A stretch of DNA of 64,000 nucleotides, taken from assembly GCA_045541915.1 (NCBI GenBank), contig JAZQJZ010000039.1, positions 13,253-77,252 on the forward strand. The letters are read 5' to 3'. Each line of letters opens with the position of its first letter. The first letter of the stretch is position 1. The DNA comes from Eubacteriales bacterium (lineage in GTDB: Bacteria > Bacillota > Clostridia > Oscillospirales > SIG627). The position numbers and the translations under genes were made by a program. The notes beneath the pieces are model-generated. The model searched no databases. It had not been told where the DNA came from and saw only the letters and a program-made list of their open reading frames with translations. Shown piece by piece: positions 7,728-8,110 of this stretch.

Positions 7728-8110
7728 AAAAAGACACCCGGTAGGGAGACACTTCATAAAGAAGTGTTCTCCCTACTTCCTTTTTATATGAAAATTGACA
7801 CTTTCAGTTCGAAAGTGTCATAGTGGGTTAGATACTTTGAGAAAGGGAAATACTTGCCGAAAATAACATTTCATTTTCAGTGTGTAAAAGTGATATTGCA
7901 AACTAAAAGTTTGCAGTGATATTTTTGCCTTACAGCAAAAGTGATATAAAAGCCTACGGCTTTTGTGATATTATATTCGCCAGAAAAACTCGTCGTAGCC
8001 GAATATCACACGGCATAGCCGTATATCACTGCGAAGCAATATCACTCGCCGATAGGCGAATATAACTGAGGCGCACTCCGTAAGGAAGTGCTCCTCTAGG
8101 GTGTCTTTTT
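7728..8110. repeat. AT-rich intergenic element bounded by ~28-bp imperfect inverted repeats, containing a GTGATAT/hairpin array
   Basis: Left end aaaaagacacccggtagggagacacttc (7728-7755). Reverse complement of 8084-8110 is aaaaaaagacaccctagaggagcacttcc. Interior holds a 10-bp perfect palindrome tgacactttc-N5-gaaagtgtca (7796-7820), four GTGATAT copies and four ATATCAC/ATATAAC copies. No ORF. Confidence 0.6.
7741..7785 (+). terminator. rho-independent terminator after the MBL-fold gene
   Basis: Stem gtagggagacacttc / gaagtgttctccctac with loop ataaa, followed by ttccttttt. Confidence 0.65.

Follow-up and report, generated by a model that had tools for sequence, protein, structure and literature searches.

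Probable insertion of a small dispersed element with mirror-image Gut-1 arrays into a terminator loop in gut Oscillospirales

We analyzed a 64,000-nucleotide stretch of DNA (hereafter, the window) from a metagenome-assembled genome (MAG) of the Oscillospirales (G000:C39:13253-77252; MAG of 1.77 Mb in 40 contigs, 89.5% complete). The subject is the spacer between the convergent genes 6931..7716 (+) and 8111..9151 (-). Positions 7744-8096 of this spacer probably represent a non-autonomous copy, without any gene, of a small mobile element with dispersed copies in gut Oscillospirales, lodged in the loop of a transcription terminator. An earlier reading made from the DNA letters (hereafter, the sequence-only reading) had described an AT-rich spacer of ~380 bp without a plausible open reading frame (ORF), and had offered as explanations a non-autonomous mobile element similar to a miniature inverted-repeat transposable element (MITE), a small RNA (sRNA) locus, or a protein-binding platform. 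The description holds, as the GC content is 0.39 in the interior and 0.52 in the flanks, and the longest ORF entirely within the spacer encodes 49 aa (7916..8065); one frame from outside also reaches in, and none of these looks coding. Among the three explanations, the mobile element is supported: it is multi-copy, patchy among relatives, and present or absent in two pairs of filled and empty sites, with no transposase identified. The protein-binding platform may be partly right for the heptamer arrays of the interior.

The outer repeats are two halves of a host terminator

The sequences AAAAAGACACCC (7728-7739) and GGGTGTCTTTTT (8099-8110) that flank the insert are perfectly complementary over 12 nt, and a repeat search extended this pairing to 18 nt at 89% (7722-7739 / 8099-8116). 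The inner parts of the ends, GGGAGACACTTC... on the left and the reverse complement GAGGAGCACTTCC... on the right, match imperfectly. The left 12 nt consist of an A-tract and the stem GACACCC, and the right 12 nt of the stem GGGTGTC and a T-tract that abuts the stop codon of 8111..9151 (-). The stop codons that face the spacer are at 7714-7716 and 8111-8113. The left half is followed by GGTA (7740..7743), a remnant of the terminator loop. Its TA (7742-7743) is found again at 8097-8098, which is a putative 2-nt target duplication. Several copies of the same subfamily (D1) also have TA at both junctions, including those designated C36_37k and L164. When the flanks are joined (AAAAAGACACCC-GGTA-GGGTGTCTTTTTTT), the result is a hairpin with A and T tracts, which has -21.1 kcal/mol on one strand and -18.1 kcal/mol on the other. 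The joined flanks have all the features of a bidirectional intrinsic terminator: a GC-rich stem, an A-tract upstream, a T-tract downstream, and a position between convergent stop codons. Since the joined flanks form this canonical two-way terminator and TA is present on both sides, the window insert appears to sit in the apical loop of a terminator common to 6931..7716 and 8111..9151.

Comparison with other copies separated the sequence of the element from that of its host. In the alignment of copies, similarity ends at the inner terminal hairpins, and unrelated flanks surround near-identical cores. The outer perfect repeat differs at each locus, yet its two arms can always pair with each other, and an A-run marks the left arm and a T-run the right one. 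Examples of such locus-specific arms are AAAAAGAACCGAC / GTCGGTTCTTTTT, AAAAAAGCACTC / GAGTGCTTTTTT (from the D2-type copy at C39:81100-81482), and AAAAAACAGCCTTGCA / TGCAAGGCTGTTTTTT. When 59 family copies were compared, the longest stretch over which the left and right flanks of one copy can pair reached 12-17 nt at a fixed position in 18 of them. In mismatched copy pairs, which served as the control, the longest flank complement had a median of 8 nt and a 95th percentile of 10 nt. The arms of these split terminators (at least 18 copies), which are perfect inverted repeats of 9-17 nt, adjoin the hairpins of the element directly, with 332-388 nt between the arms. The perfect 12-nt "terminal repeats" of the window are thus the two halves of the stem of a host bidirectional terminator and not the ends of the element. 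The terminal inverted repeats of ~28 bp that the sequence-only reading had assigned to the element have to be divided accordingly: the inner imperfect ~23 nt, which form the terminal hairpins, are the element's own, whereas the perfect outer 12 nt belong to the host and are different at every locus.

Filled and empty sites show insertion into, or clean loss from, terminator loops

Identical flanking proteins were looked up in other assemblies, and this yielded two pairs of filled and empty sites, both in other species. At locus A, which carries a D2-type copy (L168/L223), the filled site reads GAAAAACGCACATCG-AAAA-CGCCACTTC...(~353 nt)...GTCTCGCAAA-CGATGTGCGTTTC, while two other samples (L222 and L224) have the empty site GAAAAACGCACATCG-AAAA-CGATGTGCGTTTC, which is an intact terminator. 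At the junction itself, CGCACATCG-AAAA-CGCCAC...(~353 nt)...CTCGCAAA-CGATGTGCG corresponds to the empty hairpin CGCACATCG-AAAA-CGATGTGCG. The flanks of the filled and empty sites are 99% identical. At locus B, which carries a D3-type copy (L141/L237), the empty site (L239) is AAAAAGCACCCAACC-CTTC-GGTTGGGTGCTTTTT, and the filled site is ...AACC-CTT/element/TTC-GGTT..., so that the central TT of the tetraloop is clearly duplicated. Here, the flanking genes are 98.8-98.9% identical. Both conspecific pairs thus display clean presence or absence in the terminator tetraloop, so that members of the family either enter the apical loop of bidirectional intrinsic terminators or are cleanly lost from it.

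The same search was less informative for D1-type copies. For L117, only its own record was found, and the L161 protein was not on record. For the complete, gene-bearing form of the element (see below), no empty site was found, as 3/3 contigs were filled.

The filled and empty sites also bear on the idea that the element is resident and non-mobile, i.e., a regulatory or architectural element that serves as a platform for binding or insulates transcription between convergent genes in both directions, and that evolved in place and was homogenized by gene conversion. Such a role would suit its invariably intergenic position, its supply of hairpins in both directions, the perfect Watson-Crick symmetry of its stems, which would fit a structure working on both strands, and its heptamers, which resemble repeated recognition sites. 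However, the clean presence or absence at two loci between 99%-identical strains contradicts a resident origin of the family. Moreover, 14 congeners have no element downstream of their orthologous gene (where synteny is lost), and the 40 related genomes that were examined contained between 0 and 64 matches to the Gut-1 model each, with a patchy distribution and a spread from 0 to 64 even within one genus. A resident element is therefore a very improbable explanation.

The element is dispersed in this genome and in other gut Clostridia

BLAST and the Gut-1 model together identified at least 14 loci in the 1.77-Mb MAG. The sequence-only reading had proposed the copy number as a check, and the element is neither single-copy nor does the similarity of its ends disappear at the other loci. 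Three full-length D1 copies are ~72% identical to the window copy; for the 353-nt element proper (7744..8096), this identity extends over the full length of the copies C36:36978-37379 and C11:79309-79700. Four forward and then four reverse heptamers are present at every locus of this genome. A second gene-less copy, of the D2 type, lies on the same contig at C39:81100-81482, ~3.8 kb past the end of the window, between the arms of its own split terminator mentioned above. Outside this genome, the centre motif GTGATATTWTATTCGCC was found in at least 119 stretches of gut MAGs of human and ruminant origin, most of which are labelled Clostridia, Eubacteriales, Acutalibacteraceae, Oscillospiraceae, or Ruminococcus/Ruminococcaceae.

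Several of the loci in this MAG are at contig ends. Adjacency to rRNA operons was considered as a cause of these contig breaks and was rejected, as no rRNA was found in 15 loci and tRNAs were found at one locus only.

Some of the observations weigh against a mobile element that targets terminator loops. Many family members, especially those of the GTGAAAT type, form a class (class T) that lies between two complete terminators beside the 3' end of a tRNA, always in one orientation (34/34), and loop insertion does not explain this tRNA-linked placement. It was found for 24 of the 39 top-scoring copies in relatives and for 10 of the 52 GTGATAT-type copies, with none reversed. When this genome was searched for an autonomous partner with the same ends, nothing but noise was obtained at 3 mismatches; the assembly revealed neither a transposase nor a recombinase with ends that match, and it has no repeats of 400 bp or longer. 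We know of no strand-transfer chemistry for a four-helix-bundle protein, which is what the complete elements encode. No empty site was found for the window's own copy, where the orthologues of the flanking 346-aa gene in the 14 congeners are only 31-54% identical; this is explained by the lack of a sequenced close relative of the species. Every conspecific contig was filled for the D1-type copies L164, L149, L151, and L157 (for L151, this was its own record only). Finally, the A-run at locus A fits a duplication of 2-3 nt (AA or AAA) as well as none.

Examples of the order tRNA, terminator, array are C12:9907-10123 and the loci L030-L041 and L057-L096 (GTGAAAT type). At C7:170289-170443, where ARAGORN called no tRNA, an apparent tRNA 3' end and a terminator are followed by a weak double array that resembles Gut-1 and has GTGATGC/GTGATGT heptamers. 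A separate short repeat, TAGGGGCCCACGTCC, which appeared as noise in the search for the ends, occurs at least 8 times in the genome (C11:15743, 15886, 33295, 60921, 65461, 69438, and 69579; C7:154218).

The element has its own terminal hairpins

The left terminal hairpin, GTAGGGAGACACTTC / GAAGTGTTCTCCCTAC, together with TTCCTTTTT occupies 7741..7785 (+), the hairpin itself being 7741-7776. This inverted repeat is kept in D1 copies and is present in the predicted fold. It is the element's own end and the predicted replacement terminator for 6931..7716 (+). The right terminal hairpin, GAGGCGCACTCC-GTAA-GGAAGTGCTCCTC (8068..8096), is an imperfect inverted copy of the left one and likewise the element's own end; it was found again in BAAZ01000095, a sequence of the Weinberg seed alignment of Gut-1. 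The terminal inverted repeats that the element itself owns, GGGAGACACTTC... / ...GGAAGTGCTCCTC, are therefore imperfect, ~23 nt long, and common to D1 copies. The earlier claim that each end folds locally is borne out by these two hairpins, and both are predicted to be able to act as replacement terminators in the two directions.

A promoter-like sequence, TTTACA-17-TATTTT, abuts the last heptamer at 7860..7888 (-). Its position is that of the promoter of the Avd-like gene in complete elements, and TTGAAA-17-TATAAT and TTGACA-17-TATAAT are found at the matching position in C11, L105, and L136. The window site is probably a remnant of this promoter.

The interior is a mirror-image pair of Gut-1 arrays

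The sequence-only reading had missed the main feature of the interior. It is composed of two inverted arrays, in which heptamers are separated by private, perfect mini-hairpins that differ in each interval. The left array (7888..7976, +) has GTGATAT at 7890, 7916, 7941, and 7965 and three private hairpins. The right array (7998..8068, -) has, as read on the + strand, ATATCAC at 8003, 8023, and 8039 and ATATAAC at 8060. The Rfam model Gut-1 (RF01706; curated gathering score 50 bits) matched the right array with 62.5 bits (E 1.5e-11) and the left array with 36.9 bits (E 4.4e-5), the latter below the cut-off. In both arrays, three hairpins joined by GUGAWAU linkers were aligned to the model.

Gut-1 was described in 2010 as a candidate single sRNA of 77 nt, known only from human-gut sequence, with no function or context stated (Weinberg et al. 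2010, PMC2864571; Rfam). In the searchable literature after 2010, nothing was found on its function or context, and it otherwise appears only as a folding benchmark. In the flanks of the original seed alignment, an inverted second array is already recognizable, along with the same terminal hairpin (GAGGCGCACUCC-GAAA-GGAAGUGCGCCUC) and outer flanks that are complementary, none of which is commented on in PMC2864571. Unlike the Gut-1 of Rfam and PMC2864571, the motif here makes up one half of a double array with mirror symmetry, which is carried by a mobile DNA element. It further differs from the RNA reading of Rfam in that the stems are almost without G-U pairs and that the arrays usually precede a promoter.

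In 113 copies, 359 hairpins were tallied, with 237 distinct spacers, almost all of which are perfectly paired. Among 2064 stem pairs, 2024 were Watson-Crick, 11 G-T, 15 A-C, and 14 other, with no strand asymmetry. The covariation analysis that the sequence-only reading had suggested thus revealed strong covariation of the hairpin stems. The predicted fold is very stable, with z values of -8.6 for 7831-8112 and -13.6 for the whole element, and -12.9 for the opposite strand.

These properties could be those of an sRNA gene, i.e., of a ~280-nt transcript that starts at the promoter-like site 7795-7824 or runs on the - strand and folds into a ladder of hairpins, with the outer 12-mers as a covarying closing stem. 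The Gut-1 match above the gathering score, the promoter-like and terminator-like signals, the stable fold, and the covarying stems all agree with such a transcript. In addition, the C18 array directly adjoins the ribosome-binding site of its Avd-like gene and must therefore be part of the 5' untranslated region there. However, G-T and A-C pairs are both nearly absent, with no strand asymmetry, and the two strands fold equally well. Most complete elements have a promoter between arrays and gene, which places the arrays upstream of the transcription start. Near-identical copies have unrelated outer 12-mers, and in element-free strains these arms make up an intact short hairpin at two loci, which marks the 12-mers as host sequence rather than a covarying stem. 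The heptamers of the two arrays are also uncompensated. An sRNA gene is favoured neither by the pair statistics nor by the location of the arrays, which in complete elements precede the promoter, and we consider it improbable.

Two attempts to read more from the arrays failed. The asymmetry of G-U and A-C pairs did not indicate the transcribed strand, as the counts were 11 and 15 among 2064 pairs. A rod of stacked junctions, held together by pairing of left with right heptamers, was drawn by the minimum-energy fold, but heptamer variants are not compensated: complementary variant pairs were found in 5/163 nested and 2/152 parallel comparisons, and the mean complementarity was 5.7 and 5.8 of 7, respectively. 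Heptamer types change in concert in both arrays without compensation, and a common reader explains this better than pairing. We infer that the arrays are repeated recognition sites on hairpin spacers, which may act on the DNA level.

Complete elements carry a PF05635 gene next to the arrays

This genome has three genes for four-helix-bundle (Avd-like) proteins of the family PF05635/TIGR02436, for which the closest solved relative is PDB 2RLD. All three are directly preceded by a double array of their own, with the heptamers GTGATAT (C11), ATGAAGC (C18), and ATGGAAT (C12). The gene-less D2 copies are precise deletions of the PF05635 gene. The complete element L105, from a Hadza MAG, has a length of 782 bp between the split terminator arms AAAAAAGGCGTATCGCATA / TATGCGATACGCTTTTTTT and lies downstream of groEL. 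Its only substantial ORF encodes a PF05635 protein of 118 aa (a 20-aa frame is also present), and the proteins of the full-length relatives are 115-120 aa long.

The association of arrays and gene was also seen when 80 metagenome loci were sampled without bias around the PF05635 protein; they represent 37 distinct proteins. An upstream double array was detected by a strict script for 22 of the 37 proteins, and 10 of the 15 script-negatives were inspected by eye and all had arrays. The heptamers are lineage-specific: GTGATAT, GTTATAT, GTGAAAT, ATGAAAT, GTGAAGT, GTTATGA, and GTTAAGA. One locus type (L246; 26 human-gut contigs), with the arrays directly upstream of the Avd-like gene, appears by eye to be the same as the Rfam seed BAAZ01025322. 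A consensus sigma-70 promoter separates the arrays from the gene in most complete elements, but C18 and some metagenome loci have the array immediately next to the ribosome-binding site.

At two loci, L292 and L295, only a forward array of 4-5 GTGATAT units precedes the Avd-like gene, with no inverted array and no obvious promoter between. A diversity-generating retroelement as the context of the gene was considered and rejected, as there was no RVT_1 match in the 89.5%-complete genome and the complete elements have no second gene.

The window copy contains an accessory oriT-like module

The sequence-only reading had noted a perfect 10-bp palindrome at 7796-7820 that overlaps a TTGACA hexamer. 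The palindrome is present and TTGACA is at 7795, but it is more than a promoter-associated palindrome, since it forms the inverted repeat of a site that resembles the origin of transfer (oriT) of MOBV-type plasmids. This module (7796..7846, +) has the inverted repeat 7796-7805 / 7811-7820, followed by ATAGTGGG/TTAGATACTTTG, with the G/T step 8 nt past the repeat. The overlapping promoter-like sequence (7795..7824, +) is TTGACA-N18-CATAGT with an upstream TG and agrees with the consensus at 10/12 positions. The palindrome and the following ATAGTGGGTTAGATACTTTG match plasmid sequences over 31-35 nt with 93.5-94.3% identity; one of these matches (93.5% over 31 nt) lies 67 nt upstream of a gene for a Mob/Pre 'plasmid recombination protein' in a Tn4451-like unit. 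The core GAAAGTGTCATAGTGGGTTA is near-invariant in 6 copies of this genome (the window copy and 5 others) and in 12 copies from other MAGs, despite an overall identity of the elements of only ~72%.

The oriT of pMV158 has an inverted repeat, 8 nt, and then GpT, and overlaps the mob promoters (PMC5863519). The window module is similar to the pMV158 oriT/RS_A (PMC5863519) in the inverted repeat, the 8-nt spacer, the G/T step within GTG(G/T)G/TTA, the ACTTT repeats on either side, and the overlap with a promoter. It differs from MOBV oriT/RS_A sites in that this putative site has no adjacent relaxase gene and is located in a 353-nt chromosomal repeat.

A tblastn search detected MOBV (Mob/Pre) relaxase genes on two small contigs of this genome, C38 (2111 bp) and C35 (1629 bp); what each contig encodes is the N-terminal domain, with the HxDE...PHxH motif. 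C38 additionally encodes a small excisionase-like helix-turn-helix protein, and C35 has an inverted self-match of ~870 bp (652-1519). Both contigs are probably fragments of integrative mobilizable elements.

Dispersal could, in principle, depend on this module: a Mob/Pre relaxase acting in trans would nick or recombine the site at 7796-7846 and thereby spread the element or mobilize the adjacent chromosome, with the arrays as passengers. The close matches to plasmid sequences, one of them near a Mob/Pre gene, the pMV158 layout, the near-invariant core in otherwise diverged elements, and the presence of two MOBV-type relaxase genes in the same genome are in line with this. On the other hand, the D2, D3, and tRNA-linked copies lack the module and are equally dispersed, and both documented insertions are of the D2 or D3 type. 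The relaxases of C38 and C35 are only 24-25% identical to plasmid Mob/Pre, and no site matching the core was found on these contigs. The junction with a 2-nt duplication in the pair L237/L239 is not a signature of relaxase strand transfer. Gut-1 arrays were not found beside the plasmid oriT homologues. We thus regard a hitch-hiking transfer or recombination site as an unlikely, though not negligible, explanation. Since D2 and D3 copies do without it, the oriT-like module is therefore an accessory and not the basis of dispersal.

The insert lies among core chromosomal genes

The gene 6931..7716 (+) encodes a metallo-beta-lactamase (MBL)-fold hydrolase according to domain annotation, and the MBL protein had no relative with more than 55% identity among the 5.8 billion proteins searched. 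The product of 8111..9151 (-), the 346-aa gene, had no Pfam match. The surrounding housekeeping genes (window 3964-6919 and 10079-11635) encode a RecN/SMC-like ATPase, tyrosyl-tRNA synthetase, and RNase Y. With these neighbours, the insert is in the core chromosome and not in an island.

Comparison with known systems and a possible mechanism

Bacterial MITEs and mosaic intergenic repeats (Correia/NEMIS, RUP, BOX, and ERIC) are small, non-coding sequences with imperfect terminal inverted repeats, a short target duplication, many intergenic copies, a modular structure, and promoter- or terminator-like signals. The window element shares its size, non-coding nature, imperfect terminal repeats, putative short duplication, intergenic copies, modular build, and signals with these repeats. 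It differs in that no cognate insertion sequence that carries a transposase and has the same ends was found, and that the only gene of its full-length relatives encodes the four-helix-bundle protein of 115-120 aa. Its target is, moreover, a structure (the terminator loop) and not a sequence, and the conserved core is internal while the ends vary between subfamilies. IS1397 and ISKpn1 are 1.4-kb elements of the IS3 family, which encode a DDE transposase and insert into the loop of one conserved family of palindromes, the repetitive extragenic palindromic (REP) sequences. As for IS1397/ISKpn1 in REP, insertion of the Gut-1 family is into the apical loop of an intergenic palindrome, with host hairpin halves as flanks and a very short duplication. 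In contrast to them, the Gut-1 family targets unrelated terminator hairpins and encodes no transposase.

The resemblance to the intervening sequences (IVS) of 23S rRNA is suggestive. The IVS of Coxiella burnetii 23S rRNA is a ~430-nt, AT-richer element, described as selfish and horizontally acquired, which is situated in helix 45, has complementary flanks which pair into a long stem, and encodes an S23p/PF05635 protein (PMC4990558). Like this IVS (PMC4990558), complete relatives of the window element are small, AT-richer, carry PF05635, and sit in a hairpin loop. Unlike the window copy, which is gene-less and located in a terminator, the IVS lies within an rRNA gene and is excised from the RNA by RNase III (PMC4990558). 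Heptamer arrays have not been reported in IVS, and none were looked for here.

The window copy may have arisen as follows. The element would have entered a pre-existing bidirectional Rho-independent terminator at its apical loop, so that the stem halves 7728-7739 / 8099-8110 now imitate perfect terminal repeats. An enzyme acting in trans would open the exposed loop of the terminator with a cut staggered by 2 nt and paste the element in. Such a cut would leave TA in the window, TT in one of the empty/filled pairs, and an AA-compatible junction in the other. The heptamer arrays would be the cis sites that are recognized by the small PF05635 (Avd-like) protein, and the C11 protein, whose array has the same heptamer type as the window copy, could act on this copy in trans.

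A bolder extension, to which we assign a low probability, is that the arrays and the PF05635 protein form a self-contained class of mobile elements without a DDE, HUH, serine, or tyrosine enzyme. Members of this class would home to the apical loops of hairpins, which are terminators here and 23S rRNA helices 25/45 in the classical IVS. The protein would read the lineage-specific array of its own element and recruit the insertion machinery of the host, and the window copy would be a passenger served by the C11 protein.

The Gut-1 motif itself is already catalogued, and its genomic context is new relative to the searchable published literature. Gut-1, an orphan "RNA of unknown function" for 16 years (since 2010), hereby gains a genomic identity as a small mobile insert that targets terminator loops and replaces the terminator of the host with its own hairpins. 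It is also tied to a second orphan, the PF05635 four-helix-bundle family, which includes Avd of diversity-generating retroelements and the ORF of the 23S rRNA IVS. One question that follows is whether the intervening sequences of rRNA spread in this way, too. In practical terms, the elements break MAG assemblies, are likely to be mis-annotated as sRNA genes, and can, in abundant gut Clostridia, alter the 3' ends of the genes beside them.

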